Source: Nitrospirota bacterium
GTDB lineage: Bacteria > Nitrospirota > UBA9217
NCBI GenBank assembly: GCA_043731355.1
Contig: JAYTJE010000024.1
Span: 421-64,420 of the forward strand
DNA: 64,000 nucleotides
Reading direction: 5' to 3'
A model generated the notes under the pieces. That model ran no database searches. It was not told the DNA's origin and worked only from the letters and a program-made list of their open reading frames with translations. Shown here piece after piece: positions 1,242 through 47,042 of this stretch. Each line of letters opens with the position of its first letter. Positions within the stretch are counted from its first letter, which is position 1. The position numbers were made by a program, and so were the translations under genes.

Positions 1242-3696
<2,455 letters not shown>

Positions 3697-7798: not shown

Positions 7799-8968
7799 CT
7801 ATACGAAGACCCGCGGCACCCTGGCGCTGATCCCGCACAGCACCTCATAGGGTATCGTGCCGGTCTTTTCCGCAAGGTCCGCGGCAGTAATCCTCTCGCC
7901 GCCCGAGGAGCCGATCAGCACCACCTCATCGCCTTCACGGACGCCGGGGACATCGGTTACATCGAGCATGGTCATGTCCATGCAGACCCGTCCCGCCACG
8001 GGCACCCGGACTCCCCGGACGAGCGCCTCGCCGCGGTTCGAAAGAGCGCGGCTGAAGCCATCGGCATAACCGATGGGGATGGTGGCGATCAGGCTCTCGC
8101 GCCTGGTCACAAAGGTCCTGCCATAGCTGACGGGCGTGCCTGCGGGTACTTTTTTCAGCAGAAAGATCCTTGTCAGGAGCGAGAGGACCGGCTGCAGATC
8201 AACGCCGGAGGCATTTCCTTCCACCGGGTCGTATCCATACAGCATGAGCCCGGGCCTGACCATCGTAAGCAACGCACGCGGGTAATCAAGGACCGCCGCG
8301 CTGTTGGCCGCATGGCGGAGCGGAATATCTATTCCTTGATCAGCGAGGGTTTCCAGGAGTTTTTCGAATCGTTCCATCTGATGCGAGGCGAAGGCTTTGT
8401 CCCTGAGGTCGGCATCGGCGAAGTGCGTCATCAGGCCCTCGACCACGATGCCCTCAAACGCCATGAGTTCCCGGATCAGGGCCGGAGCGGCTTCCGGAGA
8501 AACGCCGGTCCTGTTCATGCCGGTATCCACCTTCACATGCACGGTAATGCGCTGGGAGCGCCTTTGCCCTGCATCTGAAAGTGCGCGGGCAACGGTGCTG
8601 CCCGACAGGGCTGGCGTCAAACGCCACGCCGCGACCGCGTCGGCCTGCCCGGGAAATACCGGACCCATGACCAGGATCGGAGCCTCGATCCCGGCCTCGC
8701 GCAACTGTCTTCCCTCTTCGACCAGGGCAACGCCGAGCATGTATGCGCCTTGCGCCAGCAGATGCCGCGCTACGGGAACCGGTCCGTGGCCGTATGCCTG
8801 GGCCTTCACCACGGCAAGCACCTTACGCCCCATGGCGCGGCGCAGCACTTCCGCGAAGTTATGCGAGAGCGCGCCAAGCGATACCCTGGCCACCGTCGGC
8901 CGGTCAGCGTCGGCGCCGGTCGGCAACCCCGGGACCGGCCGTGCCGCGTCAGTGGATGGTGCTCTCAT
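7799..8968 (-). CDS. alr: Alanine racemase (true start may be downstream of the annotated one)
   Basis: PLP-binding VVKAQAYGHG motif near the N-terminus; ~370-aa fold. Confidence 0.8.
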   Translation of the reverse strand: MRAPSTDAARPVPGLPTGADADRPTVARVSLGALSHNFAEVLRRAMGRKVLAVVKAQAYGHGPVPVARHLLAQGAYMLGVALVEEGRQLREAGIEAPILVMGPVFPGQADAVAAWRLTPALSGSTVARALSDAGQRRSQRITVHVKVDTGMNRTGVSPEAAPALIRELMAFEGIVVEGLMTHFADADLRDKAFASHQMERFEKLLETLADQGIDIPLRHAANSAAVLDYPRALLTMVRPGLMLYGYDPVEGNASGVDLQPVLSLLTRIFLLKKVPAGTPVSYGRTFVTRRESLIATIPIGYADGFSRALSNRGEALVRGVRVPVAGRVCMDMTMLDVTDVPGVREGDEVVLIGSSGGERITAADLAEKTGTIPYEVLCGISARVPRVFV

Positions 8969-12283: not shown

Positions 12284-12356
12284 TAACGCTCCCCTGTTTT
12301 CCCCGCGGCAGGTCCCGGTCGCCGCTCCGCGGTCCCCTTTTCCCGAGTCCCCGCCA

Positions 12357-12626
12357 TTATTCCTTTTCTCCGAACTTGTCCTTAAAGAGCTGTTCGAGCC
12401 CCAGGAGCGCCCGCTCTTCATCGTCACCGTGCGCTTCAACGAGGACGCTGCTTCCTTTTGCGGCGGCAAGCATCATGATGCCCATGATGCTTTTTCCGTC
12501 AACGTCAAGGCCATCCTTGGTCAGCGTTATTTTGGAAGCATAGGCGCTCGCTGATTTTACGATCTGGGCAGCGGCCCGGGCATGGAGCCCAAGCCTGTTC
12601 TCAATCATCAATTCCTTCTTTTTCAT
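12357..12626 (-). CDS. ptsH: Phosphocarrier protein HPr
   Basis: GLHARAA active-site His15 region, 89 aa. Confidence 0.9.
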   Translation of the reverse strand: MKKKELMIENRLGLHARAAAQIVKSASAYASKITLTKDGLDVDGKSIMGIMMLAAAKGSSVLVEAHGDDEERALLGLEQLFKDKFGEKE

Positions 12627-13441
12627 CAGACCACTCCCGCATATGCAAGGGCCAGACAGAACAGAGCCAAACCCAGCATGAGTTTTATTGGAGAACCGCC
12701 TCTCCGCAGAATAAAAACGAGGACCAGGGTGATTATCAGCGCGGCCATTGCCTGGACCGGGCCCGGCAGCGGCAGCGTGGGCGCGAACTCCGGGCGCCAG
12801 CCTGAGATCGTTGCAAGGATCCCTCCCAGGACCGACAGCGAGCTCGCTTTGAACAGCCGGGCGCTCTTCGTAAAACTATACCGTTCCATAAGCGCCATGG
12901 CGTCGCCCCTGCTGTGATAGCCCCAGAACACGATGCTCAGCCTGAGCCCCACGTGCCAGAGGTTATAGAGCGCCAGAAAAAGAAGCGGCGCCCACCAGAC
13001 CCCTGCCATGACCAGCGCCACGGCAATCACCGCGGCCAGCGGCTTCAGCGCGCCCCAGAAAAAACTGTCCCCCAGCGCTCCCAGCGGCGCCATCAATGCG
13101 GCCTTTAAGCCCGCGGCATCGGTCCCCGATGAGGCGCGCCCCGTTGCCCGGTCCTCTTCCAGCCCCACCACCGCGCCAAGAAGGAACGACGCCAGATAGG
13201 GCTGGGTGTTGAAATACTCCATGTGCAGCCGCAGCCGCGCCTCAAACTCGGCGCGGTCAGGGTAGAGCTTCTTCAGGACCGGCAGCAGGGCATAGGAAAA
13301 ACCGAGCGCCTGCATCGCGTCGTAGCTCCATGACGCCTGGAGCAGCAACGAGCGCCAGAATACCCTGAGCAGGTCGCCGGATCCTATGGGGCGCTTATGG
13401 CCGCTGTTCACGGTATCGTACTCCCAGCCAGCCGGTCGCAA
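12626..13441 (-). CDS. PTS mannose/fructose/sorbose family IID component
   Basis: FWRSLLLQASWSYDAMQALGFSYALLP hallmark; TTG/GTG start. Confidence 0.8.
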   Translation of the reverse strand: MRPAGWEYDTVNSGHKRPIGSGDLLRVFWRSLLLQASWSYDAMQALGFSYALLPVLKKLYPDRAEFEARLRLHMEYFNTQPYLASFLLGAVVGLEEDRATGRASSGTDAAGLKAALMAPLGALGDSFFWGALKPLAAVIAVALVMAGVWWAPLLFLALYNLWHVGLRLSIVFWGYHSRGDAMALMERYSFTKSARLFKASSLSVLGGILATISGWRPEFAPTLPLPGPVQAMAALIITLVLVFILRRGGSPIKLMLGLALFCLALAYAGVV

Positions 13442-14198
13442 CGGTCAGCAGCGTGGTCAGTGCGGCATAAGCATGAAACACCAGCGCCGCCAGGCCCGCC
13501 GCGATAAAACCCGTCAGCAAAAAAGGGTCCAGAGCACTGATCGACAAACGGCGCACGATGAGGGCGACGCCAAGCAGAGGGACCAGCTTCAGGAACAGTT
13601 CCATGGCGGCCTGGACCGTGGACGGTGACCGCATAAAGAACGCTGCCGCGACAAGTCCTGTTGGCAGGAGCAACGCATAGAGGACCACCGACTTTAAAAA
13701 GAATGCGCAGAGCCCCGTAAGATGCGCCCGGGACAGGCTGCGCTCCGCGTCGGCGCCGCCTCGCGCGGCGTCAACAAGCCGGGAATTCCAGGTGCGAACA
13801 TAGGTGTCGGCCATCATGGTGAGCGGCACGGTACCCACGCTCAGGAGAATACTGAATCCGAGGACCGATCGGGGCGCCCCGCCCGGGCACGAAAGGGCCG
13901 CGACTGCCGTCGCGGTGACGGCGCTGACCGTTGCGTTTGCCGGCACAAAGCCGCCGACCGGCATATCGAGCACCCAGATGAGCTCAAGCATGGCGCCGAT
14001 GATCAGCCCGGCGGTAGCATCGCCCAGGAGCCATCCGGCAAGCGGCGCGGCGACAATAGGCTGCGAGATCATGAACTGTCCCGCCGCGGTCCGGTCAAGG
14101 CCGACGAGGCCGCCCACAAGGGCAACACCGATTATGGCAAGCAGCAGATGAAGATCGATCATCGCCATCCTTCCTCTAAAAACCAATGCAACGCGCAC
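13395..14198 (-). CDS. PTS mannose/fructose/sorbose family IIC component
   Basis: Polytopic membrane protein of the IIC-Man family. Confidence 0.8.
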   Translation of the reverse strand: MRVALVFRGRMAMIDLHLLLAIIGVALVGGLVGLDRTAAGQFMISQPIVAAPLAGWLLGDATAGLIIGAMLELIWVLDMPVGGFVPANATVSAVTATAVAALSCPGGAPRSVLGFSILLSVGTVPLTMMADTYVRTWNSRLVDAARGGADAERSLSRAHLTGLCAFFLKSVVLYALLLPTGLVAAAFFMRSPSTVQAAMELFLKLVPLLGVALIVRRLSISALDPFLLTGFIAAGLAALVFHAYAALTTLLTVATGWLGVRYREQRP

Positions 14199-14215
14199 GT
14201 TGCATGCTCAAATCT

Positions 14216-14701
14216 TCAATTCAAGCCGCAGGACTCGAACACCTTACTGAGCTGCTGCGGTTTCTCGTTCGGCACGGACTGGATGCAGATCGTGACTCCC
14301 CGGGCCAGGATCTCCCGCAGAGACCCGATATCGGCATCGTCCACGGAAAGGACCTCCCTGAGCTTGCGTTTCCCGGGAACAACGTGCATCCCTCCCAGAT
14401 TGATCGTCCGGCACTGAAGGCCGGACTTGAGCGCCCGCAGAGCATCGGTCGGATTGGAGAACAGCAGGATCGCCCGCTCGTTCTCCCCCACCGTCCGCGC
14501 CTGTACACAGATGTCCATGACTCCGCCGATCGTGACCACGAGCCCCTGTGGCGCGGAGAGCTCCATGATGGACCGCTGAAGCGCATTGACGGCAACCCGG
14601 TCGTCGGCAACGAGGATCCGGGTGGCCTTCAGGTACTGGACCCAGCCCTCCACGACCTGCCCATGGATCAGACGGTCGTCTATGCGGACGAAAAGCGCCA
14701 T
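14216..14701 (-). CDS. PTS mannose-family IIB component
   Basis: N-terminal RIDDRLIHGQV phosphohistidine motif. Confidence 0.85.
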   Translation of the reverse strand: MALFVRIDDRLIHGQVVEGWVQYLKATRILVADDRVAVNALQRSIMELSAPQGLVVTIGGVMDICVQARTVGENERAILLFSNPTDALRALKSGLQCRTINLGGMHVVPGKRKLREVLSVDDADIGSLREILARGVTICIQSVPNEKPQQLSKVFESCGLN

Positions 14702-14707
14702 GAGCTG

Positions 14708-15109
14708 CTATTTCTTTCCCTTCAGCATCTGGCTCGCGATCACCACGCTTTTCTGCGCCGCCTCCTGAACGAGTTTGGCCAGTTCGGCCAGCGGTTTTTC
14801 TTCGCGGTGATTGGCGAACTTGATCATCATCGAGAGATTGACGCCGGTAACCACTTCCACGGTGTCGCCGAGAAAGGCCAGCGCGATATTGGAAGGGGTG
14901 CCGCCGAACATGTCGGTAAAGAGCATAACGCCTTTTTTCCCGTCAACCTTCCTGATCGCGGTTTCGATCTCCGTGCGGAGACTTTCGGGCGCGCTGTCCT
15001 GCTTCACGCTGACCGTTGCCACCGCCGCGATCTTTCCCACGATCATTTCAGCGGCCTTCACCAGCTCAACGCCCATGTCCTCATGACAAACCACCACCAG
15101 TCCAACCAT
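14708..15109 (-). CDS. PTS mannose-family IIA component
   Basis: GLVVVCHEDMG His-containing EIIA-Man N-terminus; start set at MVGLVVV. Confidence 0.75.
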   Translation of the reverse strand: MVGLVVVCHEDMGVELVKAAEMIVGKIAAVATVSVKQDSAPESLRTEIETAIRKVDGKKGVMLFTDMFGGTPSNIALAFLGDTVEVVTGVNLSMMIKFANHREEKPLAELAKLVQEAAQKSVVIASQMLKGKK

Positions 15110-31977: not shown

Positions 31978-33726
31978 TCACCCGCCCACGATCGTAATAT
32001 CGCCCGCTTCACATGCCCGGAGAAAAGCATCCACGATCTCCGGATCATACCACGCGCCGGAGCAGCGCCGGATCTCCCCAGTTGCGGATTTCCAGTCCGC
32101 GGCCTTGCGATAGGGGCGGTCGGTCGTGATGGCATCAAAGGTATCGGCGATCGCAATGATCCGCGCATGGATTGGAATAGTTGCTCCTTTGAGGCCGTCG
32201 GGGTAGCCGCTGCCGTCCCATTTTTCGTGATGGGCGCGCAGGACCTTACTGACATCTTTCATCTGTTTAATATGAACGAGGATGTCCTCGCCCACCAGTG
32301 GATGCTCGCGCATGTGGCAGATTTCCTCGTGAGTGAGCCCGCCCTCTTTGAGCAGCACACTGTCCCTGATTCCGATCTTCCCAATATCGTGCAGCACCGC
32401 CGCCAGGCGGAGCGCCTCCACGTCGTTCAGCGACAGAGACATATGCCGCGCGATCGCCGCGCTGTACTCAACCACCCGCTTGATATGGCCGCCCGTATAC
32501 GGGTCCTTTTTCTCTACCGCGGCCGCGAGCGCCTCGGCCGTGTTAATGAACGTTTCCTTGAGTTCGGCATAGAGATGCGCGTTCTCGAGCGCAACCGCCA
32601 CCTGATTCGCCAGGGTCCAGCAGACTTCGAGGTCGTCTTCGGTAAAAAGCGCACCGTCCTTCTTATTCACGGCCTGGAGTACGCCGATCACGCCTCCCCG
32701 GGAGCGCACGGGCACACAGACCATGTTCCGGGTTATGAAATCCGTGATCGTCTGGGCGCGCCGGAAGTACCGGGGATCATTCTGCACATCATTGATCAGC
32801 GCGGGCTGGTCGTTCGCCGCTACCCAGCCGGCAATGCCCTCGCCCATTTTGAGCCGCATCTGTTTGACCTGCAGCTCCTTTTCACCGAGCGCCACTTCGA
32901 AATAGAGGTCCTTGGTCCGCTCGTCCACGAGCAAAAGCGAGCCCACTTCGGCGCCCAGCAGACTGGTCACCGCCTCGATGGCGCGCTGGCGCACCTCCCG
33001 CTGGTTCAGCGTGGAGTTCAGGACCATGGCAAGCTCCAGCTGCGTTGCCCGGCGCTGCGCCTCCAACCTGCTGCCGGACAGGAGGACCGTGTACGCTACG
33101 TCCAGAGCGAGCTGCCCGGCAAGCGTATCGAGCATTTCCTTGTCTTCCCTGCCAAAGGGCTTGCCGATCGTTTTGTTAATGAGCTCAACCACGCCGATCA
33201 CGCCGCCCGAGGTCGTAAGCGGCGACGCAAGGATATTGCGGGTGGGAAACCGCATCTCCGCGCTGATCTTGCTGCTCCACTTCGTGTCCCTGGCCACATC
33301 GGAGCTCAGATACGTTTTGCCAGTCTTGAACACCCATCCGGCGATGCCTTCGTCAAGCGCCATGCGCCTGCCGATGAGTTTCTGAGCGCCCGGGCCGGCG
33401 CTGGCCCGAAACACCAGGTCCTCGCCGTCATGCATAAGAATGGACCCGGCCGCGGTGTTGGTAAGTTTGAGAATCACGGTGAGATAATTGGAGAGCAGGG
33501 TGTCCAGTTCATCAGGACCGATGTTCTTGCTGGTGAGCAACTCCTGCTTGACCTTCTGAAGCAGGACCATCTTTTTGAGCGCGCTCAGTTCGGCGCGGAG
33601 AGCCGTCTGGTTTTTCCTGGAAACCGATTTTTTCACAACAACCGGTTTCCTTGCCGCCGGCACGATGCGGCGGGACAGGCTCCCCGCCCTCCGGACCTTG
33701 CTGACCGCCTTGCTTTTTTTAGTCGC
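31978..33726 (-). CDS. GAF-GAF-HD-GYP domain phosphodiesterase
   Basis: Two GAF-like regions; HD motif AAVLHDIGK and GYP motif WDGSGYPDGL. Confidence 0.8.
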   Translation of the reverse strand, partial: ATKKSKAVSKVRRAGSLSRRIVPAARKPVVVKKSVSRKNQTALRAELSALKKMVLLQKVKQELLTSKNIGPDELDTLLSNYLTVILKLTNTAAGSILMHDGEDLVFRASAGPGAQKLIGRRMALDEGIAGWVFKTGKTYLSSDVARDTKWSSKISAEMRFPTRNILASPLTTSGGVIGVVELINKTIGKPFGREDKEMLDTLAGQLALDVAYTVLLSGSRLEAQRRATQLELAMVLNSTLNQREVRQRAIEAVTSLLGAEVGSLLLVDERTKDLYFEVALGEKELQVKQMRLKMGEGIAGWVAANDQPALINDVQNDPRYFRRAQTITDFITRNMVCVPVRSRGGVIGVLQAVNKKDGALFTEDDLEVCWTLANQVAVALENAHLYAELKETFINTAEALAAAVEKKDPYTGGHIKRVVEYSAAIARHMSLSLNDVEALRLAAVLHDIGKIGIRDSVLLKEGGLTHEEICHMREHPLVGEDILVHIKQMKDVSKVLRAHHEKWDGSGYPDGLKGATIPIHARIIAIADTFDAITTDRPYRKAADWKSATGEIRRCSGAWYDPEIVDAFLRACEAGDITIVGG

Positions 33727-34549
33727 CATGTCCCGCCAGTACCCCCTGTTTAAGCGCCTTGACGAAGGCCGCGGACTTTTCGACAAGGTCTGGAAAACCG
33801 CCGTTCTCTTCGATCACCTTCACCAGAGCGCTGCCCACGATAACACCGTCGGCGCCCCACCGGGCAACCTGCGCTGCCTGGTCCGGCGTTGAAATGCCGA
33901 ACCCGACAGCCACGGGTTTGTCCGTCATGGATTTGATCCTCGTGAGTGACTCCTGGATCGACTGCTGAAGCCCGGTCCTCGCCCCGGTCACACCGGTCAG
34001 AGAGACATAGTAGACGAATCCCTGAGACAGCTTCGTCACTAATTTTATGCGTTCGTCCGTGCTCGTTGGCGCGAGCAGGAAGATCATATCCAGTCCGGCC
34101 TTCTTCGCCAGCGGGGCAAGGGTCCCTGCTTCTTCAGGCGGCAGATCGGGAAGAATGATCCCGTCCAGACCCGCGGCGACCGCGTCGAGAACAAAGCGTT
34201 CCTCGCCGTAATGAAAAATCAGGTTGTAGTAGGTCATGAGAATGAGCGGTATCCTGCTCACGGTACGCACATCCGTCACCAGCGACAGGACGTCGGCGAT
34301 GCTCGTACCATGCTTGAGCGACCTGATGGCCGCCTTCTGGATCGTCGGCCCGTCGGCCAGAGGGTCGGAAAAAGGAGCGCCGAGCTCGATGATGTCCGCG
34401 CCTGCCTTTTCGAGAGCAAGGACAAGCTGCTTTGTTGCGGCCATATCCGGGTCCCCTGCCATGAGGTAGGGAATGAGGGCAGTTTCGTTCTTTTTCGTGA
34501 GTCGGTTGAACGTGTTTTTTATTCTCGACATAATTTTCCTAAATGACAC
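33719..34549 (-). CDS. trpA: Tryptophan synthase alpha chain
   Basis: TrpA signature LIPYLMAGDP...ELGAPFSDPLADGP. Confidence 0.95.
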   Translation of the reverse strand: MSFRKIMSRIKNTFNRLTKKNETALIPYLMAGDPDMAATKQLVLALEKAGADIIELGAPFSDPLADGPTIQKAAIRSLKHGTSIADVLSLVTDVRTVSRIPLILMTYYNLIFHYGEERFVLDAVAAGLDGIILPDLPPEEAGTLAPLAKKAGLDMIFLLAPTSTDERIKLVTKLSQGFVYYVSLTGVTGARTGLQQSIQESLTRIKSMTDKPVAVGFGISTPDQAAQVARWGADGVIVGSALVKVIEENGGFPDLVEKSAAFVKALKQGVLAGHGD

Positions 34550-34646: not shown

Positions 34647-34868
34647 TCATTTACCGAAGACCTCTTTATGGGTCTTCACTCGTCCTGCCTTGTAATCAGC
34701 TCTCGATTCCTTGATACCAACCAGATACTCGGGCGAGGTAGCGGCGAGCAGGTCTTCAAGAAAGACATCCCGCTCTTTCTTTTTCATATCTTTCACAGCT
34801 TTTATTATCTCTTCCTGGGAAACTGTTACTTTGACAGCGCTTAACATTTGGCGCCTCCCTGCGACCAC
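34647..34868 (-). CDS. Small antitoxin-like protein (C-terminus resembles Phd/antitoxin tails), orphan
   Basis: 73-aa ORF; weak family resemblance only. Confidence 0.3.
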   Translation of the reverse strand: MVAGRRQMLSAVKVTVSQEEIIKAVKDMKKKERDVFLEDLLAATSPEYLVGIKESRADYKAGRVKTHKEVFGK

Positions 34869-34876
34869 CGCGTAAC

Positions 34877-35722
34877 CTACCGTACTATCTTATACACTGC
34901 CGTTGCTTCTGTCCAGTCCGTAGGTTCAAGCTGGTTCAGTTTCTTGACCAGGTCGCTGATCATGCCTGTTGACTTCGCATCGTACACCTTGAACATCCCT
35001 TCCTGGAATCCCAGCGGCACGATCGCTTCTTCTTTCCTCGTTGCAATGACTTTTATTCGTTCCTCAGCCACCGTCCCCTTAAAGCTGGGAAGAAACATCG
35101 CCTGCAAACGCACCGGGCTGTTAGCTGGCGGAAATTCGTAGGCTTTCGAAAGCAGCAGCCGGTTGTCCCTGTTCGTCGAGTTCGGCAAGAGCAGCGTCAC
35201 CGAACCGTCAGCCGCGATGGAGAAAATATAAACATAACAGTCGCTGTTCGACTGATAGATGATCGTTGTTTCCTCGCCCTCTTTAAGCACGGATTTTGAG
35301 AGGGCAAGCTTCAGTGACAGGCCCTGGCCCTTCTCCGGGTACACCGGATCGATGAGCGCCCTTATCTTCACCCGGTAGAGATTGCGGTCCTTCTCATCCC
35401 AGCCCTCGGACAGGACGTCCATCTTCTCGATCTTCCCGCGCACCGCCGCATAGACGAGATCGTCGGCAACCTGGAAGTTCGAGACAAGGGTGTGCGACTT
35501 GATGAATGCGCCCACCGCCTGTTCGACCGCCCTGCTCTGGGCATCGCGCTTTGCCCGGTCTTTGACTTCTTTCAGCGTATCATTATCGCTCTGCGATGCC
35601 TCGCCCGTGGCCTCGACCCAAAGCGGCCTGTCCGCGCCGGAGGACAGCAGGGGGATGGCGAGAAATGCAAATATTAAGCAAGCTCTTTTCAAGAATCCCC
35701 CCCTAATCTTTTCCCGGCCCAA
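34877..35722 (-). CDS. Secreted LPP20-like/DUF4384-like protein (family usually paired with peptidase C14 domains)
   Basis: Signal peptide; N-terminal LPP20-like region; C-terminal DUF4384-like region; adjacent to caspase gene with 20-nt overlap. Confidence 0.5.
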   Translation of the reverse strand: MGREKIRGGFLKRACLIFAFLAIPLLSSGADRPLWVEATGEASQSDNDTLKEVKDRAKRDAQSRAVEQAVGAFIKSHTLVSNFQVADDLVYAAVRGKIEKMDVLSEGWDEKDRNLYRVKIRALIDPVYPEKGQGLSLKLALSKSVLKEGEETTIIYQSNSDCYVYIFSIAADGSVTLLLPNSTNRDNRLLLSKAYEFPPANSPVRLQAMFLPSFKGTVAEERIKVIATRKEEAIVPLGFQEGMFKVYDAKSTGMISDLVKKLNQLEPTDWTEATAVYKIVR

Positions 35723-37001
35723 TCAACTGCGGCGTCTGTTCATTGTTGTACTGTTTCCGCGCAATGCGCTCCACCTGGGGCTTCATGTAGCTGTAGATGT
35801 CCTTCACTTTGAGAGAGCCATCAGGCCGCACCACGTCCTCGTTCTTGATGCTCTTCAGGAAAAAGTACGTAAACAATCCATGCCCTTTTTCTTCATAGGT
35901 TGAGCTTATCTGGTCGCCTGATGCTGCGGAAAGGACTGCTATCTTTTGAGGTATTTGCAAACTCTCCATCTGCATTACCAAGGGTCTTGCACCCTTTGCA
36001 AGGACACTCCTGCCGCCCGCGCCTGAAAAGCAGGAATCAAGCGCAACGATGATTTCCTTTGCCTGAAGTTTTCCAAGATTTTCATAGAGCCGCTTTAAAG
36101 AATATCCTGTCTGGTCAATAAATGATGGGTCGCCGTCATAGGGAACAAGGTAGGCATCACCTGTTTTTGGATTCGGCGCGCCGTGTCCTGAATAGTAGAT
36201 AAAAACGGAACTATCTTTTTCGACATTATTCCAGAGCCACTTTTCAAAGTATTTTGCGAAATCTACATTAGTCGCATGCTCATTCAAAAGCGTAACTACA
36301 TTTTCCTCAGGATAGCCCATTACCTTTGTGAGATATTCTGTCATTGTCTGAGCGTCCTGTGTTGCATAATCGGCCTTTGGAAGTTTCTGGCGGTAGTTCT
36401 CTATGCCGATGACTATGGCGAAGGAGTTCTTATTGGGCTTTGCTTTGATTGAAGGGAGCTCATCAACGTCGGATTTGATAGCCGATTTTTCCTCAAAAAC
36501 AGAAGCAATCGGTTTTTTATCCTTTGCATAAAGGTTCTTATATTGCATTTCTTCCGCTTCTCTAAGTATGCGCACGATAACCGTTTGACCTTCTTTTTCT
36601 GCAAGTTGCAATGCCGTTCCCTTGGGGCTGCTTTGTGTGAGGTCAGCTCCCCGTTCAAGCAGGAGTTTCACGACATTTGCATTGCCATTACCAACCGCCA
36701 AATGTATAGGTTTCCAATTGTCCATACCCAAATTGGGATCAGCGCCTTTATCAAGCAAGAGGCGTACTATATCTAAAGAGGCGCAGCACTTATAGAGCAC
36801 CGCCTCATATAAAGGCGTTACACCAAACAGTCCTCGTTCATTCACATCAACGCCTTTATTTAATAGGGCTTCCACCTCTTTAATATCTCCTCCATGTGCT
36901 GCTGTTCCAAGTTGTGTTATTGTTGCACACCCTGTCATCGTCATGCTCAAAACCAGGATAAAGATTACACCGATTAAAAAAACTAAATTATGCCTTTTCA
37001 T
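35703..37001 (-). CDS. Lipoprotein with ankyrin repeats and a C-terminal caspase-like (peptidase C14) domain
   Basis: Lipobox MTGCAT; ~3 ankyrin repeats; catalytic dyad motifs YYSGHGA and DSCFSGAG. Confidence 0.8.
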   Translation of the reverse strand: MKRHNLVFLIGVIFILVLSMTMTGCATITQLGTAAHGGDIKEVEALLNKGVDVNERGLFGVTPLYEAVLYKCCASLDIVRLLLDKGADPNLGMDNWKPIHLAVGNGNANVVKLLLERGADLTQSSPKGTALQLAEKEGQTVIVRILREAEEMQYKNLYAKDKKPIASVFEEKSAIKSDVDELPSIKAKPNKNSFAIVIGIENYRQKLPKADYATQDAQTMTEYLTKVMGYPEENVVTLLNEHATNVDFAKYFEKWLWNNVEKDSSVFIYYSGHGAPNPKTGDAYLVPYDGDPSFIDQTGYSLKRLYENLGKLQAKEIIVALDSCFSGAGGRSVLAKGARPLVMQMESLQIPQKIAVLSAASGDQISSTYEEKGHGLFTYFFLKSIKNEDVVRPDGSLKVKDIYSYMKPQVERIARKQYNNEQTPQLIGPGKD

Positions 37002-37029
37002 CCCCCGCCTCCTACTCTCAAACTTAAAA

Positions 37030-37244
37030 TTATTTATATACGTTCCCTCTGAAATCCACTACATCAACGAAGATTGATTTGGACTCGATACGCGGCTTGA
37101 GGATAATTCTGATTTGCCTTTCCGGATGCGATAATAACCTGCCCAGTCGCCTTTTAATTTCTTAACGTCTATATTAATATTTGAGCCTGTTATCTTAAGA
37201 ATAAAATTTTTGATGGACCTCTCTGACTTTTTCTCTAACCCCAT
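37030..37244 (-). pseudogene. RelE/ParE-family toxin gene disrupted by a frameshift (KGDWAGYYRIRKGK then, in another frame, RIILKPRIESKSIFVDVVDFRGNVYK)
   Basis: Characteristic RelE C-terminal pattern recovered only by switching frame after codon ~46. Confidence 0.5.
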
Positions 37245-37292
37245 GTTCCTCTATAAAATCATCAGCTCTTTTTGAATATTCTACATTCCAGT

Positions 37293-37484
37293 TCATATGT
37301 TTATTGTTTCTGAATGAGCTGATCGTTTTTCCGGCTTTCCATAGTGGACTATAATCTCCCGCATTTCCTTATCAGAAACCTCCGGAAAAAACATAAGCCG
37401 CACTTTTGCTAATTCCTCTTCCAATGCCTCTTTCACCGATTCTTTTATAATAGTTTTTAGCTCCTCATGTCTTACAGTTTGCAT
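37293..37484 (-). CDS. Putative antitoxin (addiction-module component) upstream of the frameshifted RelE
   Basis: 63-aa acidic helical ORF immediately 5' of the toxin remnant. Confidence 0.35.
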   Translation of the reverse strand: MQTVRHEELKTIIKESVKEALEEELAKVRLMFFPEVSDKEMREIIVHYGKPEKRSAHSETINI

Positions 37485-37573
37485 ATCGAGAAACCTCCTT
37501 TCTGCTCCTTCCTATTTCTAAAAGAGCTAAGCCTATTTTATCACAACCAACTGCGGTCTATCTCTCAAATCAC

Positions 37574-39067
37574 CTATCTTTTCTTTCCCCCGAACAACTG
37601 CGGCGTCTGCTCGTTGTTGTACTGCTTCCTGGCAATGCGCTCCACTTGAGGCTTTACATAGCTGTACAGGTCATCGAGCTTGAGTGAGCCATCAGGCCTC
37701 GTTACATCCTCGTTCTTGATGCCCTTCAGCATGAAATACGTGAATAGCCCGTGCCCTTTTTCGTCATAGGTTGAACTGATCTGGTCGCCAGATGAAGCGG
37801 ACAGGACAGTCATATTGATGGGAAGGACAGCGCTGGCATTAAGATTCATTACGAGCGGCCGAGCACCCTTGGCAAGTACAGATCTGCCACCGGCGCCGGA
37901 AAAGCAGGAATCGAGCGCAACGATCACTTCCTTTGCAGGAAGCTTACTTAATGCAGAATACATTCTCTTCAAAGAGTACCCTGTTTCGTCAATAAAGGAC
38001 GGGTCGCCGTCATAAGGCACCAGATAGGCATCCGAGGTCTTGGGATTCGGCGCACCATGGCCGGAATAGTAGACAAAAACTGTACTGTCCTTCTCCACAT
38101 TGTTCGGAAGCCACTTTTCGAAATATTTTACCAAATCGACATTTGACGCATGATCATTCAAGAGTGTAATAACATTCTCTTCCGGATAACCAAGAGCCTT
38201 TGTGAGATAATCCGCTACCAGCTCCGCATCCTGCGTGGCAAAATCTGCTTTCGGAAGCTTCTGGCGGTATTGCTCAATGCCAATTACAATGGCGTAAGAG
38301 TTTTTGTTGTGCTTGACTTTTACCGCGGGGAGTTCGTCAACATCCGATTTGATGGCGGGAGATACTTCTGAAGCAAGGGTTTCAGGCTTGCCTTTAGCAG
38401 AAGCATAGGCGTGTATCTCACTGGAAGAAACCATAAGCTTGACACTCTCTTGTAAAGCAGAAACCATTGCTTTCGCCGCTGCATCCTCAACGCTTCCCTC
38501 GCTACCAGCCGATCCACCAGCCCAATTGAATGTTTTCCCGGCTATCTTAGGCGAACTTACAGTTTTTTCCCATAGCAGTATTCCTTGCTTATCGATAATA
38601 GTATATTTAAGCGAGACGCTCGCCAGTGCTTTAGCAGGCGCATTAAAAGGATTTAAAGAACGAGCTTTTACAAACTCGTAATAGAATTCTCCAATTTCCG
38701 GAGTAATAATAATATCAATGCCTTCTATATCCGGGTTCCCTTTCACTATTGTTACATTGTTAAAAGCATGCAAAAATATAGATGAAGCTCCTTTTTTAAA
38801 CAACTGCCCAAGAGGAAAAGTTCCTGTAAACCCCCAGCCCATCTGTGTTGCAGGCTTCCCGGTAAACGTGATATTTTCGATATTATCCGGCATTAGTAAT
38901 GCTGCATTCAGAGGAATCTTTTGCATAATCATAGGGGGCGGAACAGTAAAGTCAGATGGCACTTTGGCGATATAAGTTGCGCACCCTGTCATCGCCATGC
39001 CCACAAGCAGGATAAAGATTACGCTGATTAAAGAAATTACAGCCTTTGAACCACTCAATCTTTTCAT
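37574..39067 (-). CDS. Lipoprotein with unknown ~220-aa N-terminal domain and C-terminal caspase-like (peptidase C14) domain; paralog of 35703-37001
   Basis: Lipobox MTGCAT; caspase domain nearly identical to the ankyrin paralog (YYSGHGAPNPKT, ALDSCFSGAGGRSVLAKGARPLVM); ATG at 39067 preceded by GGAGG. Confidence 0.8.
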   Translation of the reverse strand: MKRLSGSKAVISLISVIFILLVGMAMTGCATYIAKVPSDFTVPPPMIMQKIPLNAALLMPDNIENITFTGKPATQMGWGFTGTFPLGQLFKKGASSIFLHAFNNVTIVKGNPDIEGIDIIITPEIGEFYYEFVKARSLNPFNAPAKALASVSLKYTIIDKQGILLWEKTVSSPKIAGKTFNWAGGSAGSEGSVEDAAAKAMVSALQESVKLMVSSSEIHAYASAKGKPETLASEVSPAIKSDVDELPAVKVKHNKNSYAIVIGIEQYRQKLPKADFATQDAELVADYLTKALGYPEENVITLLNDHASNVDLVKYFEKWLPNNVEKDSTVFVYYSGHGAPNPKTSDAYLVPYDGDPSFIDETGYSLKRMYSALSKLPAKEVIVALDSCFSGAGGRSVLAKGARPLVMNLNASAVLPINMTVLSASSGDQISSTYDEKGHGLFTYFMLKGIKNEDVTRPDGSLKLDDLYSYVKPQVERIARKQYNNEQTPQLFGGKKR

Positions 39068-39102
39068 AACCCACACCTCCTAATGTCGAAGCCTTTGAAC
39101 AT

Positions 39103-39245
39103 GCACCCTCAGGGTCAGGTCTTGAATCTTGACATTCCCTGGCGGGCGGTAATTTCACCGTTTAAAATGCGTAGACTTGCCGGTTCAAGCTTGCAGCTTG
39201 GACCACATCGTCACTATTTCGGTTCAATCTTCAAGATTGAACCAG
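39103..39245. repeat. ~140-bp island repeat, copy A (ends in perfect hairpin GGTTCAATCTT-c-AAGATTGAACC), upstream of caspase paralog 2
   Basis: ~85% identical to copy B at 40355-40495. Confidence 0.8.
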
Positions 39246-39258
39246 CGAAGCCGGCGGG

Positions 39259-39513
39259 CTATCTCGCTTTCGCCCGTCCACCAGTATGACTGGTAAGTCG
39301 TTGAGTCGAACGGGTTAAATCGAGCAACGACCTCAAGGCCTTGTTCACCGACTCTGAATTACCGAAGGCCTTGGCGACATCCGACTCCAAAACGACTACA
39401 TTCGCGCCTTTTTCAACTAACCGTTTATGATACTTTCCGCGAACGGCTTTCGAATAGTCGAAATCATATTCGGGACACAATTCATCTTTGAGCTTTTGAG
39501 TTTTAGCTTTCAT
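39259..39513 (-). CDS. BrnA-like (DUF4415) antitoxin-family protein
   Basis: EYDFDYSKAVRGKY and C-terminal ...ESVNKALRSLL pattern. Confidence 0.5.
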   Translation of the reverse strand: MKAKTQKLKDELCPEYDFDYSKAVRGKYHKRLVEKGANVVVLESDVAKAFGNSESVNKALRSLLDLTRSTQRLTSHTGGRAKAR

Positions 39514-39743
39514 GCGGCAAATACCTCTTCATGGGCCAGTCGTTTTGCGGCATACAGAAGCGAGGCCTTAATATCGTCGTTTGTAAGAAAAGGATAATCT
39601 TTTTTGAGTGATTCGGCAGTTGCGCCAAAGGCGATTTTTTCGACGATGAGCTCGACCGTCAACCTCGTCCCCTTGATGACAGGCTTGCCGAGCATAATTT
39701 TCGGATCTATAACAATCCGCCTGAGAAGGGTCTCTTCATTCAT
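39510..39743 (-). CDS. DUF433-family protein (antitoxin-like partner of DUF5615)
   Basis: LGKPVIKGTRLTV core motif. Confidence 0.6.
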   Translation of the reverse strand: MNEETLLRRIVIDPKIMLGKPVIKGTRLTVELIVEKIAFGATAESLKKDYPFLTNDDIKASLLYAAKRLAHEEVFAA

Positions 39744-40114
39744 TGCATATCCTCCATCATGGGCATTATTCTGAGTTTTTTTAGCGTTATCACGGTGAAA
39801 TGATTTTGCAGTTTGTCGTAATGCTTTTCAAGAACCTTCTCCATCAATTTAACTTTGTCATCGGAGTTTTGACCCTTCACCCGAAAAAGAATTATTCCGA
39901 CGGACAGCTTTTTTTGTAAGAACGTCAATTCGCCAAAATCCTTGTCATTGGTGATAAGAATTCGTTTTTCTTTCCGTGCAAGTGCCAAGAGATCTTTGTC
40001 GGGAATTTCGCAGTTATAATCGGGAATCCATTTTACATCATATCCACACCCGGCAAGAAAGTCCACGACCGGCTTTTCCATGTTCACGTCCGCCAGGAAT
40101 TTAATTCCGGTCAT
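39740..40114 (-). CDS. DUF5615 / Mut7-C PIN-like nuclease-family protein
   Basis: KFLADVN...GYDV and ILITNDKDFGEL motifs; ATGA overlap with the DUF433 gene. Confidence 0.55.
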   Translation of the reverse strand: MTGIKFLADVNMEKPVVDFLAGCGYDVKWIPDYNCEIPDKDLLALARKEKRILITNDKDFGELTFLQKKLSVGIILFRVKGQNSDDKVKLMEKVLEKHYDKLQNHFTVITLKKLRIMPMMEDMQ

Positions 40115-40283
40115 TGGGTTCCATCTCCCGAGGTTCTGCATCCATCATTTCGCAGAACGCTTTGCGCAAAAGGTTCCCCAGGTAAAGCCATTCAAGCCGC
40201 TTCTCCATCGGCATATCCTGATAGCGCTTTAGTTGCCCTTCAGTCAGCGAATAATCGTTGTAGCGTTTTACCGGTCTCATCAT
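40101..40283 (-). CDS. Hypothetical 60-aa protein, first gene of the DUF5615 module, starting 14 nt after the duplicated trpB 3' end
   Basis: ORF only. Confidence 0.25.
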   Translation of the reverse strand: MMRPVKRYNDYSLTEGQLKRYQDMPMEKRLEWLYLGNLLRKAFCEMMDAEPREMEPNDRN

Positions 40284-40289
40284 TCCGCG

Positions 40290-40354
40290 ATCCGCATTAG
40301 TTACAACTCCACACCCTTGATCTTAGCCACCTGCATCACGTCCTTGTCCCCGCG
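40290..40354 (-). repeat. 65-bp duplicate of the trpB 3' end including its stop codon (64/65 identical to 41027-41091)
   Basis: Direct comparison; would encode ...[17 protein letters not shown]. Confidence 0.85.
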
Positions 40355-40495
40355 AACCCCCTCAGGGTCAGGTCTTTAATATTGACATTCCCTGGAGGGT
40401 AACTTCACCTGTTAAAATGTGCAGTTTTGTTGGTTCACGCTTGCAGCTTGAACCACATCGTTAGTATTTCGGTTCAATCTACAAGATTGAACCAA
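40355..40495. repeat. ~140-bp island repeat, copy B (ends in hairpin GGTTCAATCT-aca-AGATTGAACC)
   Basis: Aligned to copy A. Confidence 0.8.
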
Positions 40496-40513
40496 CTAAG
40501 TGCCCAACATGGA

Positions 40514-40735
40514 CTATAACAACCTTACAAATTCTTCCACACTCATCCCCGCTTGTCTGATAATGGCGCGAAGCGTTCCCCTATCAAGCTCCTTGTGATC
40601 AGGAACAACAACCTGAGCAAAGGGATCATTTCTGCGCAGGATAACGTGACTACCCTCCTGACGTTTGAACTGAAAACCGGCCTTCTCCAGAGCTTTGATG
40701 CAGTCACGCCCTGAAAGTCTCGGCAGCTTGCTCAT
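40514..40735 (-). CDS. hicA: HicA-family toxin (mRNA interferase)
   Basis: 73 aa; LSGRDCIKALEKAGF...GSHVIL pattern. Confidence 0.75.
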   Translation of the reverse strand: MSKLPRLSGRDCIKALEKAGFQFKRQEGSHVILRRNDPFAQVVVPDHKELDRGTLRAIIRQAGMSVEEFVRLL

Positions 40736-40938
40736 ACAGCCACCAGAAGAGCATCAAAATGGTCTTCCGGCACAGGAATTTTATCATCCTCCAGTGCTGC
40801 CACATAGCCACTGATCGCTTCTTTAACATTAGCGATCGCTTCTTCTTTGGTCTTGCCTTGGCTGATGCAGCCAGGCAGACTGGGGCACTCAGCAACCCAA
40901 TAACCATCTTCGCCGGGATGTATAACCACCTGTCTCAT
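40732..40938 (-). CDS. hicB: HicB-family antitoxin (UPF0150)
   Basis: YWVAECPSLPGCISQGKTKEEAIANVKEAI pattern; GGAGGG SD before MRQVVIH. Confidence 0.75.
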   Translation of the reverse strand: MRQVVIHPGEDGYWVAECPSLPGCISQGKTKEEAIANVKEAISGYVAALEDDKIPVPEDHFDALLVAV

Positions 40939-40964
40939 ATTTGGCCCTCCACGTGTTATCAAAC

Positions 40965-41026
40965 GTTTTGCTGGTTTATGCTTGTTGCTTGAACTACATC
41001 GATGCTATTTTACTCCACAATCAAAA
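40965..41026. repeat. Partial, degenerate third copy of the 140-bp island repeat (middle section only) immediately downstream of the trpB stop
   Basis: ~70% identity to the central part of copies A and B. Confidence 0.5.
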
Positions 41027-41037
41027 ATCCGCATTAG

Positions 41038-42228
41038 TTACAACTCCACTCCCTTGATCTTAGCCACCTGCATCACGTCCTTGTCCCCGCGTCCCGAAAG
41101 ATTGCAGATGATCACTTTGTCTTTCCCGAGGGTCGGCGCAAGCTTCAGGCAATAAGCAACCGCATGGGCGCTCTCGAGCGCGGGGATAATGCCTTCGAGG
41201 CGCGACAGGAGGTCGAACGCCTCAAGGGCCTCTTCATCGACGGCATAGGTGTATTCCACGCGGCCGGTGTCGTGATACAGCGCATGCTCCGGTCCTACCG
41301 CGGCGTAGTCCAGCCCGGCGGACACGGAATGGGTCAGCTCGATCTGGCCGTGTTCGTCCTGCAGCACGAAGGTCTTGCAGCCCTGGAGCACCCCGAGGGA
41401 GCCGCCGGCGAAGCGCGCCGCGTGTTTGCCGCGCTCAATGCCGAGGCCGCCCGCCTCGACGCCGTACATCTTTACCCCGGCGTCTTCGAGGAACTCGGAG
41501 AACAGGCCGATAGCGTTCGAGCCGCCGCCCACACAGGCGACCAGCGCGTCAGGCAGCCGGCCTTCAAGTTTCAGGATCTGCTTCTTCGCCTCGCGGCCGA
41601 TCACGGACTGGAAGTCCCGCACCATCATGGGAAAGGGATGGGGCCCGAAGGCCGTGCCGAGCACGTAATGGGTGTTCGCCACGTTCGTGATCCAGTCGCG
41701 CATGGCCTCGTTGATGGCGTCCTTCAAGGTCTTGCTGCCGAGATCGACGGGCCGGACGATCGTGCCGAGGAGTTTCATACGAAAGACGTTCAAGGACTGG
41801 CGCGCCACATCATCGGTGCCCATGTATACTTCGCAATCAAGGCCGAACATGGCGGCTGCCGTGGCAGTCGCAACGCCGTGCTGCCCCGCGCCGGTCTCGG
41901 CGATCACCCGGGTCTTGCCCATGCGCTTCGCCAGCAGCACCTGGGCCAGGGAATTGTTGATCTTGTGCGCGCCGGTATGGGCGAGGTCTTCGCGCTTGAG
42001 GTAGATCTTCGCGCCGCCAAGATGGTCGCTCAGTCGTTTGGCATAATAGAGGGGCGTTGGACGTCCGACGAACTCCCGGAAGTAATAATCGAGCTCGGCC
42101 TGGAAAGCCTTGTCTTTCCTCGCCGCGAGATAGGCTGTTTCCAGTTCAGCTAAAGCCGGCATTAGCGTCTCGGGAGCGAACTTCCCGCCGTAGACGCCGA
42201 AATGTCCCTTTTTATCCGGGATACTCAT
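41038..42228 (-). CDS. trpB: Tryptophan synthase beta chain
   Basis: PLP-binding region HTGAHKINN, 396 aa. Confidence 0.95.
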
Positions 42229-45512: not shown

Positions 45513-47042
45513 TCAATCCAAACCCTTTTCCGCCATTTCCACAGCGCGCATCATGGCCTTGGCCTTGTTCACGGTCTCCTGGTACTCTGCCGCAGGATCG
45601 CTGTCCGCCACCACACCGCCGCCTGCCTGGATGTAGGCCGTATTGTCCTTGATCACGAGCGTCCTGATCGTGATGCAGGTGTCCATATTGCCTGAGAAGC
45701 CGAAGTAGCCGACCGCGCCCGCATAGGGGCCGCGCTTCGTCGGTTCCAGTTCGTCGATGATCTGCATGGCGCGGATCTTGGGCGCCCCGGAAACGGTGCC
45801 CGCGGGAAAGCAGGCGCGGATCACGTCATAGGAGTCCTTGCCCGGTGACAGTTTCCCGCGCACATTCGAGACGATATGCATCACGTGGGAATACCGTTCG
45901 ACCACCATCAGTTCGGAAACGGAAACGCTGCCCGGCTCGCTCACGCGGCCCACGTCGTTCCTGCCGAGGTCCACCAGCATGATATGCTCGGCCCGCTCCT
46001 TGGGGTCGGCAAGCAGCTCCCCGGCAAGCGCCTGGTCCTCTTCCTCGGTCGCTCCGCGTTTGCGTGTGCCTGCAATGGGCCTGAGGTCGATCCTGCCCTC
46101 CTCGAGCCTGACCATGACCTCGGGCGATGCGCCCACGACCGTCGCATTGCCGCAGCGCAGAAAATACATGTAGGGCGAGGGATTGATGAGCCGCAGCGCG
46201 CGATAGATCTCATAGGGCTCGACGCTTATCTTTGTCTGGAACCGCTGGGACGGCACAACTTGAAAGATGTCGCCCGCCTTGATATATTCCTTCGCCTTCA
46301 GCACCGCCTGCTCGTACTGCGGCTGGGTGAAGTTAGAGGTAAGAAGATGTGTCTTTGTTTTGTCTTTCCCCTTGCCCCTGGACCCAGGACCCTGGACCCC
46401 GGCCTTGATTTTTTTAACCAGCCGGTGGATCTTCGCAACCGCCTCTTTGTACGCAGCCTCGGCTGAACGGCCTTTTACATGCGCGTTAGACACGACCTTC
46501 AGCTTGTGCGTCACATTGTCAAAGATCACGAGCGTATCGGTGATCATGAAGAAGATATCGGGAAGGTCCAGCCCTTCTTTCGGTCTGGCCGGCAGGTCCT
46601 CGAAATAATTGACCACATCGTATCCCATGAACCCCACGGCTCCGCCGAAAAAACGCGGCAGCGACGGGTCGGGCACAGGCTGGTATTCGGCAAGCAGCGT
46701 CTTGACCGCTTCAAGCGGGTCGCGGTCAAACTGCGTCTTATGCTTTTTGCCGGCACGGGTGATTTCCACGACCCGGCCGGAGCTTTTGACAATGACCGAG
46801 GGCCGGCTGCCGAGAAAGGAATAGCGTGCCCACTTCTCTCCCCCTTCCATACTTTCGAGAAGAAAGGAATGACGGCCGTCGTCGATCTTCAGGAAGGCCG
46901 ACACCGGGGTCTCCATGTCAGCGAGGATCTCGCGATAGACCGGGATCAGGTTGCCTTTTTTCGCCCGTTGCTTAAATTGTTCAAGAGAAGGCTGTATCAT
47001 AAAATGCCGCATAACTCCTTGCAAAATGAAAGGTTTAAGCAC
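45513..47042 (-). CDS. trpE: Anthranilate synthase component I (exact start uncertain), with in-frame low-complexity insert GVQGPGSRGKGKDKTKT
   Basis: Chorismate-binding C-terminal domain; LLESxxxG N-terminal region. Confidence 0.85.
   Translation of the reverse strand: MLKPFILQGVMRHFMIQPSLEQFKQRAKKGNLIPVYREILADMETPVSAFLKIDDGRHSFLLESMEGGEKWARYSFLGSRPSVIVKSSGRVVEITRAGKKHKTQFDRDPLEAVKTLLAEYQPVPDPSLPRFFGGAVGFMGYDVVNYFEDLPARPKEGLDLPDIFFMITDTLVIFDNVTHKLKVVSNAHVKGRSAEAAYKEAVAKIHRLVKKIKAGVQGPGSRGKGKDKTKTHLLTSNFTQPQYEQAVLKAKEYIKAGDIFQVVPSQRFQTKISVEPYEIYRALRLINPSPYMYFLRCGNATVVGASPEVMVRLEEGRIDLRPIAGTRKRGATEEEDQALAGELLADPKERAEHIMLVDLGRNDVGRVSEPGSVSVSELMVVERYSHVMHIVSNVRGKLSPGKDSYDVIRACFPAGTVSGAPKIRAMQIIDELEPTKRGPYAGAVGYFGFSGNMDTCITIRTLVIKDNTAYIQAGGGVVADSDPAAEYQETVNKAKAMMRAVEMAEKGLD

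Follow-up and report, generated by a model that had tools for sequence, protein, structure and literature searches.

How does a toxin–antitoxin (TA) module come to lie inside a trp operon, bracketed by two copies of the end of a housekeeping gene? The question is raised by a stretch of 64,000 nt from a Nitrospirota bacterium (lineage UBA9217; assembly GCA_043731355.1, contig JAYTJE010000024.1, positions 421–64,420), referred to here as the window. Its trp operon occupies the minus strand in the order trpE (45513–47042), trpG, trpD, trpC, trpF and trpB, and trpA follows beyond an island of small genes (Table 1). Next to trpB lie hicB and hicA, adjacent genes predicted to encode a HicAB type II TA pair. 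Our preferred answer, in which we place balanced rather than high confidence, is that the repeat around hicBA is the scar of the newest addition at a hotspot that splits trpB from trpA, and that this addition came about via general recombination and not through an integrase. The locus is a displacement or accretion array of known kinds, in an unusual place, a housekeeping operon.

A duplicated trpB end around hicBA

The direct repeat occupies 40290–40354 and 41027–41091 and, as the earlier note on this DNA had reported, its copies differ by a single mismatch (64/65 identical; blastn within the window, E = 1.2e-28). The note took all 65 bp for trpB sequence. The stop codon (41038–41040, minus strand) is indeed included, but only 54 nt belong to the gene and the other 11 nt are 3′ spacer. 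The mismatch (40313/41050) is synonymous, GGT versus GGA for glycine. Other repeats of the same island aside, this is the sole high-identity direct repeat of at least 35 nt in the 64 kb. The trpB gene remains intact, and the repeats contain and regenerate the 3′ end of the target.

Between the two copies lie 672 bp, in the gene order degenerate half repetitive extragenic palindromic (REP) doublet, hicB, hicA, full REP doublet. The claim that the copies bracket hicB-hicA and one full 140-bp repeat was therefore accurate, and the degenerate half copy comes in addition. In silico removal of the 737-bp unit (the insert plus one copy) yields trpB, spacer and the small open reading frame (ORF) o60, which is the natural order in the related loci L082 and L085. 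As these two loci have this hicBA-free state, the insertion of hicBA ranks as the most recent in a series.

The two window copies are mutually closest, agreeing at 53 of 54 coding positions, versus at most 52 of 54 in comparisons with nine other lineages; the event therefore took place within the lineage. A stronger version of this statement, that several lineage-specific variants are common to both copies, was toned down, since one coding position only is unique to the two window tails.

The distal 65-mer is the only trpB-tail relic that our tail search found in the window. Neither strand of the 65-mer forms structure as single-stranded DNA (ssDNA; z = +1.4 and +1.0), and the sequence has no fold and no inverted-repeat core. 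Rfam (E up to 1) and tRNA scans identified no tRNA or tmRNA target in the region, returning a single chance-level match, and promoter prediction gave no standard sigma-70 site within the trpB tail. Neither the REP palindrome nor the trpB-tail pattern was present in the viral collection searched.

Table 1. Coordinates of the trp genes, island modules, repeats and relics in the window, and of the corresponding features in related loci (L-numbers)
Feature	Position	Strand	Basis or remark
trpB, 396 aa, last gene before the island	41038..42228	-	ORF list; 89–97% to >120 Nitrospirota TrpB clusters
Proximal 65-mer: functional trpB tail + 11 nt spacer	41027..41091	-	Alignment, blastn
Degenerate half REP doublet, just upstream of hicB, left end of inserted DNA	40964..41012	-	Alignment; nhmmer repeat profile, E = 9e-6
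hicB antitoxin (longest ORF)	40732..40962	-	Pfam PF15919, 5.9e-10
hicA toxin, 73 aa, 4-nt overlap with hicB	40514..40735	-	Pfam PF07927, 7.8e-23
REP doublet B, 23-nt palindromes 40432–40454 and 40471–40493, ~60-nt hairpin tail	40355..40516	-	Fold z = -5.9
Distal 65-mer: orphaned trpB tail, then spacer + o60	40290..40354	-	Alignment; same order in relatives without hicBA
Older module: o60, DUF5615 PIN-like, DUF433, o84	39259..40283	-	Pfam; homologues beside trpB in L082, L085, L001
o60	40101–40283	-	
DUF5615 PIN-like	39740–40141	-	Pfam
DUF433	39510–39743	-	Pfam
o84	39259–39513	-	
REP doublet A + tail, palindromes 39182–39204 and 39221–39243, upstream of first caspase gene	39102..39261	-	
Island base	34647..39076	-	Partly common to L001 and L085
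Caspase-like lipoprotein	37574–39076	-	
Small ORFs between caspase paralogues	37059–37484	-	
Ankyrin (Ank)-caspase paralogue	35703–37001	-	
DUF4384	34877–35722	-	
o73	34647–34868	-	
trpA	33719..34549	-	6.49 kb from trpB
Heptamers, window	41012–41037, 40281–40300		
Heptamers, L084	11192–11252		
Heptamers, L086	11192–11240		
Heptamers, L139	10192–10253		
L083 relic	3291–3353		After DUF2442 gene
L085 relic 1	11692–11756		After o57-DUF433
L085 relic 2	13439–13505		Before second Ank-caspase gene
L001 relic	11596–11665 (11602–11654 also given)		After o78 (o60 homologue); also in L116–L120

Empty sites, filled sites and orphaned tails in relatives

The comparison covered loci of relatives and metagenomes, here given L-numbers, with nine lineages of the close clade sampled. 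Close homologue clusters of TrpB (Table 1) come from Nitrospirota metagenome-assembled genomes and from groundwater and sediment metagenomes. The site is empty in five of the nine lineages (L084, L086, L123–L128, L139–L142 and L143–L147; 90–95% TrpB identity), where the gap between trpB and trpA measures 40–87 nt by tblastn, or 43–102 nt between called genes. The two genes also adjoin each other in the more distant Nitrospirota L002–L005 and L032. The other four lineages (the window, L081–L083, L085 and L001/L116–L120) carry a variable island, and in the trpB tree filled and empty lineages are interspersed; filled L085, for example, is sister to empty L084. Caspase-like lipoproteins, DUF4384, DUF5615/DUF433 and o60 are common to the islands, in varying order and copy number. 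These empty sites, together with the trpB-o60 order of L082 and L085, bear out an insertion at the trpB terminus as the earlier note had proposed. TrpB homologues of atypical length revealed no additional junctions.

A search of relatives for the duplicated tail had also been suggested, and was run with an nhmmer profile built from the trpB tail. It detected extra copies in filled loci only (L083, L085 and L001), and there only at the borders between modules. The L001 relic recurs in L116–L120, which are five independent assemblies of the L001 population. Identity of the relics to the resident tail is graded, from 100% in L083 (209 nt) through 98% in the window and ~88% in L085 to 75% in L001. 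In the oldest relics the GDKD motif, elsewhere invariant in TrpB, is broken, which marks them as decaying, not functional, trpB; their import from a foreign trpB allele was ruled out, since no member of the clade has a C-terminus with a broken GDKD. Every relic keeps AAGGAYGTGATGCAG and an in-frame stop codon, with tandem heptamers following, and all of them, the 75% relic included, retain a Shine–Dalgarno-like AAGGA and GTGATG (a mini-ORF). No relic lies next to trpA.

The strains L081 and L083 are 99.6% identical and encode the same TrpB; L083 differs by an extra DUF2442 cassette of 341 bp, on either side of which stands an exact copy of a 209-bp segment. This repeat is mostly non-trpB: ~50 nt come from the trpB tail, the rest from the spacer and a REP doublet. 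Counted from the end of trpB, the duplicated segment runs from -53 to +11 in the window, from -50 to +161 in L083 and from -67 to ~+22/36 in L085, with a left border at ~-56 in L001. Overall, left borders fall at -50, -53, ~-56 and -67/-69, right borders at +11, +22/36 and +161, and all tail copies have the segment from -50 to the stop codon in common, a stretch in which an att core may lie. Junction sequences and cassette ends show no common motif, and the inserts (0.25–0.7 kb) have no shared backbone. The second L085 relic lies within a diverged tandem duplication (11640–11803 / 13387–13549), and the join there uses the DUF433 tail.

The suggestion that serial insertions built the island stands for its trpB-proximal part, where relics occur only at module borders and show graded decay; for the island base, which has no relic on the trpA side, such an entry is not borne out. 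Islands without a mobility gene are common and their growth is poorly documented. This locus offers a clean, datable stepwise record, with an intact anchor, relics at four levels of identity, empty alleles and strain-level polymorphism. The setting is uncultivated Nitrospirota of groundwater and sediment. The island interrupts an essential operon, and expression of trpA, the last gene of that operon, probably has to cross the insert.

How the island may have grown

Under integrase-free displacement, the reading that we prefer, donor DNA from a related cell, carrying trpB and a different module, would pair with the resident trpB as a homologous anchor. Its non-homologous far end would be joined illegitimately 50–70 nt upstream of the resident stop codon, either by homology-facilitated illegitimate recombination (HFIR) or by unequal exchange, and the join would regenerate an intact trpB and leave the old tail as a relic. 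In the window, a 737-bp unit would have entered directly behind trpB: a second trpB tail together with 672 bp of DNA new to the site, namely a degenerate REP, hicB-hicA and a tailed REP doublet. The former neighbour, o60-DUF5615-DUF433, would have been pushed downstream along with the orphaned 65 nt (54 of trpB, 11 of spacer). Between the direct repeats, RecA-type pop-out could then release the module as a circle with a single repeat and, with Campbell-type re-entry of such circles, modules could spread or vanish in a population. Pop-out and re-entry would account for the L081/L083 polymorphism and for the patchy distribution of modules. The junction of a circle popped out from the 737-bp unit would read REP tail, 65-mer, TTTTGATTG. 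We infer both the enzymology (RecA plus an illegitimate join) and the direction of each event, and the modules would presumably be transcribed with the trp operon.

HFIR has been proposed as the mechanism behind integrase-free arrays of orphaned 3′ ends (PMC5361080), and the features of such arrays are present here: a conserved anchor, orphaned 3′ fragments with older modules, and no recombinase found. The closest parallels are the orphan arrays of Rhs, contact-dependent inhibition (CDI) and type VI secretion system (T6SS) loci (Jackson et al. 2009; Kirchberger et al. 2017, PMC5361080). There too, new modules enter by a conserved upstream anchor, older DNA is pushed downstream, and strings of orphaned 3′ fragments accumulate without an integrase. 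However, in those arrays the 3′ end changes with the incoming DNA, which supplies a new toxin domain, and selection acts on immunity genes, whereas here the same housekeeping tail is regenerated (64/65 or 209/209), the anchor is a gene of a biosynthetic operon and the cargo consists of unrelated small modules (TA pairs, DUF2442, caspase-like genes). Tandem duplication inside the islands is directly visible in L085 and in the caspase paralogues of the window. The L081/L083 polymorphism is compatible with precise excision of a circle, and equally with RecA-mediated pop-out.

Several observations weigh against general recombination. Where HFIR has been measured experimentally, it is a rare process (PMC5361080). 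The four distinct junctions occupy a span of 20 nt, with 3 nt between the two recent ones; the L083 join lies 211 nt from the end of homology, and proximity to the end of the anchor therefore fails to explain the clustering. A preferred site, or selection that keeps a functional element in the tail, may lie behind this clustering. Simple illegitimate recombination accounts for neither the clustered left borders nor the features retained by the relics. A recombinase acting in trans is also possible, our view being limited to 64 kb of the genome.

Such a recombinase is the core of the strongest competing explanation, which we regard as a possible but doubtful one. A site-specific enzyme encoded elsewhere would use the trpB tail and the spacer, with its GGA-containing heptamers, as the attachment (att) site for integrase-less mini-cassettes. 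The process may be likened to the capture of integron cassettes or to the accretion of cis-mobilizable elements (CIMEs) as well as integrative and mobilizable elements (IMEs), and is essentially the model of the earlier note. The geometry is exactly that of tandem accretion, with a partial target between elements and the newest element at the target, as described for tycheposons (10.1101/2020.12.28.424599) and for CIME/IME (PMC5704250). The left borders of all four junctions cluster between -50 and -69, the modules are all co-oriented, and the motif AAGGAYGTGATGCAG and heptamers kept by each relic are candidate binding sites. Against this stands the lack of an enzyme. Pfam found no tyrosine or serine recombinase or transposase in 10 island ORFs or in 40 other ORFs of the window; a recombinase motif screen was negative, and none was called in the islands of relatives (L085, L116–L120). 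The borders are inconstant, the L083 repeat running 161 nt past trpB through the REP doublet; the cassette ends have no common motif and the tail has neither inverted-repeat core nor fold; L085 has the same geometry with the tail of DUF433 in place of trpB; and no relic lies by trpA.

The likeness to known site-specific systems is similarly incomplete. CIMEs, IMEs and integrative and conjugative elements (ICEs) at fda or tRNA genes, and tycheposons at tRNAs, are also flanked by a repeat that holds the 3′ end of the target; in their accretions, too, partial target copies separate the insertions, the newest lies by the intact target, and empty sites exist. Yet a tyrosine or serine recombinase is encoded in those elements, or visibly was at one time; their att core is constant and their length runs to kilobases. 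Here no remnant of a recombinase was found in the ORFs scanned, border positions vary, the inserts measure 0.25–0.7 kb and the repeat is sometimes mostly non-target. With no recombinase in those ORFs, variable borders and small inserts that lack a common backbone, an integrase mechanism of the tRNA-island type, as first proposed for this locus, is not supported.

Integrons and clusters of attC sites lacking integron-integrases (CALINs) resemble the island in their small, co-oriented and apparently promoterless cassettes, which include TA modules, in a recurring short element and in promoter-proximal entry. They differ in that the trpB tail is unstructured and devoid of R''/L''-L'/R' boxes and of a GTTRRRY core, which is absent at all four junctions, and in that no IntI lies beside the array, where trpF-trpB stand upstream and trpA downstream. 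The hairpin element here is a REP doublet of a family linked to REP-associated tyrosine transposases (RAYTs), not attC. The integron reading was rejected on these grounds: no IntI, no attC fold, no core motif.

It is unlikely, though worth stating, that the last ~50–70 nt of trpB and the heptamer spacer form an integron-like cassette dock within an essential operon, served by an unrecognized trans recombinase or by RAYT/REP activity. If it were so, promoterless modules such as TA pairs and caspase-like genes would be taken up at the promoter-proximal end and transcribed together with the trp genes, and the Shine–Dalgarno sequence, start and mini-ORF of each relic, or a promoter, would keep the displaced genes and trpA expressed. 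A dock with functional relics would explain four junctions within 20 nt.

Somewhat less probable still is breakage or template switching linked to the REP doublets, in which hairpins would stall replication or a RAYT would nick the DNA, and the strand would re-enter behind its point of departure, duplicating the target. The ends of REP doublets coincide with junctions in three of three REP-containing events: the window REP tail abuts trpB at -53, that of L085 abuts DUF433 at -36, and the L083 cassette departs at the end of the REP. The doublets fold strongly (z = -3.6 to -6.9), the family is linked to a bona fide RAYT (NF047646, 85 bits versus a cutoff of 80), and an orphan gene tail lies beside a REP at the unrelated locus L088. 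However, two events are REP-free (o78 in L001 and o57-DUF433 in L085), REPs may have entered the intergenic gaps afterwards, the window holds no RAYT, and L088 fits tandem duplication plus deletion equally well.

We give little credence to tandem duplication from trpB -53 followed by replacement or deletion of the content of the second copy. Such duplications are frequent in the islands (L085, 11640–11803 / 13387–13549 and also its Ank-caspase pair, and the window caspases), but at least two precise steps would be needed, and what follows the distal 65-mer is the o60 module, found behind trpB in relatives, and not a second hicBA. Finally, an assembly artefact that mis-joined two strain variants through the shared 65-mer, named in the earlier note as a possible refutation, is highly improbable: the source is probably a metagenome-assembled contig and assemblers do break here (as at the 100-N gap of L001 with its duplicated 55-nt flanks), but the junction of REP tail and trpB -53 is unique, shares no k-mer elsewhere and cannot come from k-mers joined wrongly, each copy is linked by the mismatch to the flanks it has whenever k > 41, and L083, L085 and the five independent assemblies L116–L120 all show this geometry too.

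If general recombination is the true mechanism, the evolution of displacement arrays would extend from polymorphic-toxin loci to a housekeeping operon; if the clustering of junctions reflects a true site, the locus would represent an undescribed integrase-less cassette system. Either way, the locus advises caution: duplicated gene ends are not always integrase att sites, and REP doublets can pass for att or attC repeats.

Spacer, REP doublets and genes of the island

At empty sites the spacer behind trpB consists of three to four tandem heptamers, T[GT]CGGA[AT], then ~25 nt and the trpA start codon; at filled sites the island starts directly after the last heptamer. The heptamers, with GGA every 7 nt, occur behind the trpB stop codon across the clade and behind every relic. 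They could represent a CsrA-like RNA-binding site, a translational element of trpA or a recombination site. L116 (10189–10230) and L118 (10189–10268), which have the same TrpB protein, differ by a 38-nt indel in the heptamer spacer that holds a GC-rich hairpin, CCCCGGC...GCCGGGG; the spacer is therefore polymorphic within one population. In L001, a 100-N scaffold gap (11173–11272) with identical 55-nt flanks sits exactly at the trpB tail, and TrpB is annotated as partial. Judging by these flanks, the public assembly broke and was then re-joined at the repeat-prone tail.

The 140-bp repeat belongs to a RAYT-associated family of REP doublets and forms no part of a trpB att site. Each copy is composed of two 23-nt palindromes, GGTTCAA-N9-TTGAACC, set 16 nt apart, and three copies bear an extra hairpin tail of ~60 nt. 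The window contains four such palindromes, versus 0 expected. As ssDNA the doublets fold above shuffled controls (z = -3.6 to -6.9), and the minimum free energy structure of REP doublet B is a single long hairpin of the REPIN type. REP doublet A, upstream of the first caspase gene, matches the position of the L081 doublet, which lies upstream of the gene after trpB; REP doublet B ends within 2–3 nt of the distal trpB tail. The exact palindrome was found at 29 metagenome loci of 39–55% GC, often in several copies per contig, and no trp genes or island proteins occur at those loci.

The palindromes flank ORFs in L102 (217–801, minus strand) and L112 (310–813, minus strand) that pass the NCBIfam NF047646 RAYT equivalog (85.1 and 85.7 bits, against a cutoff of 80) and whose best PDB match is 4er8, TnpA-REP. 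The family resembles REP/REPIN-RAYT systems (Bertels and Rainey 2011, PMC3116915; Nunvar et al.) in its paired palindromes, which form two hairpins or one, and in its dispersal at many unrelated extragenic sites, including those that flank the L102 and L112 RAYTs. It differs in the ~60-nt hairpin tail on three copies, and in that the copies in the window and all fetched clade loci (~150 kb of related sequence) are confined to the trpB–trpA island. Because of this confinement and the low GC, the REP-bearing modules appear to have come from other, lower-GC organisms. The DNA between trpB and trpA has 38–50% GC, versus 56–67% for the trp genes.

Two other arrangements of the palindrome should be noted. 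L087 (24–108) carries three 23-nt palindromes at 31-nt spacing, a tight tandem REP cluster. At the unrelated L088 (7165–7262 / 8594–8691; also L098), a 98-nt direct repeat of 99% identity comprises the last 38 nt of a gene for a 397-aa lipoprotein and its terminator. On the gene strand the order there is orphan tail, REP palindrome, full gene and the same tail, a geometry like that of the window, which tandem duplication and then deletion may explain equally well.

All modules in the islands are co-oriented. Terminator hits in the island did not exceed chance, and each of the three on the gene strand falls within a coding sequence. Translation of trpA likely begins at the ATG at 34531, which gives the MSRIKN... 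start that relatives have, and not at the GTG at 34549.

The caspase-like (Peptidase_C14) lipoprotein paralogues, some with ankyrin repeats, travel with DUF4384 and possibly have a role in defence or programmed cell death. They arose via tandem duplication inside the island; those of the window have 76–81% nucleotide identity, and those of L085 lie at 11775–13193 and 13613–14896. One of the two small ORFs between the window paralogues has a faint RelE-like PHROG match (E = 0.0099), and together these ORFs are possibly a decayed TA pair.

The small ORF o60/o78, with the core ...LT.EQLKRYQ.MP.EKRLEWLYLGN.LRKAF, always stands beside the trpB end or a relic (window, Table 1; L001, 11359–11595; L085, 11221–11394; L082, 4270–4290). 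Its predicted three-helix model has a predicted local distance difference test (pLDDT) score of 82. A check for an Xis- or recombinase-like identity gave no Pfam, NCBIfam, PHROG or PDB fold match. The DUF5615 gene beside o60 is cut down to its last ~14 codons in L085, and in L081 and L083 o60 itself is only a 5′ stub.

For hicB, translation likely starts at the ATG at 40938, behind a GGAGGG Shine–Dalgarno sequence, rather than at the TTG at 40962, giving a protein of 68 aa. The nearest HicA in a donor search (90% identity) lies in L131 (3798–4485), from an unrelated organism, and the HicB beside it also has 68 aa. The search gave no origin for hicBA: L131 has no REP and no duplication, and the homology is confined to the coding region. 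In L131 the hicBA genes and a 78-aa ORF are inserted inside an hdrA-flpD / DUF5981-metF operon, a TA module within a metabolic operon.

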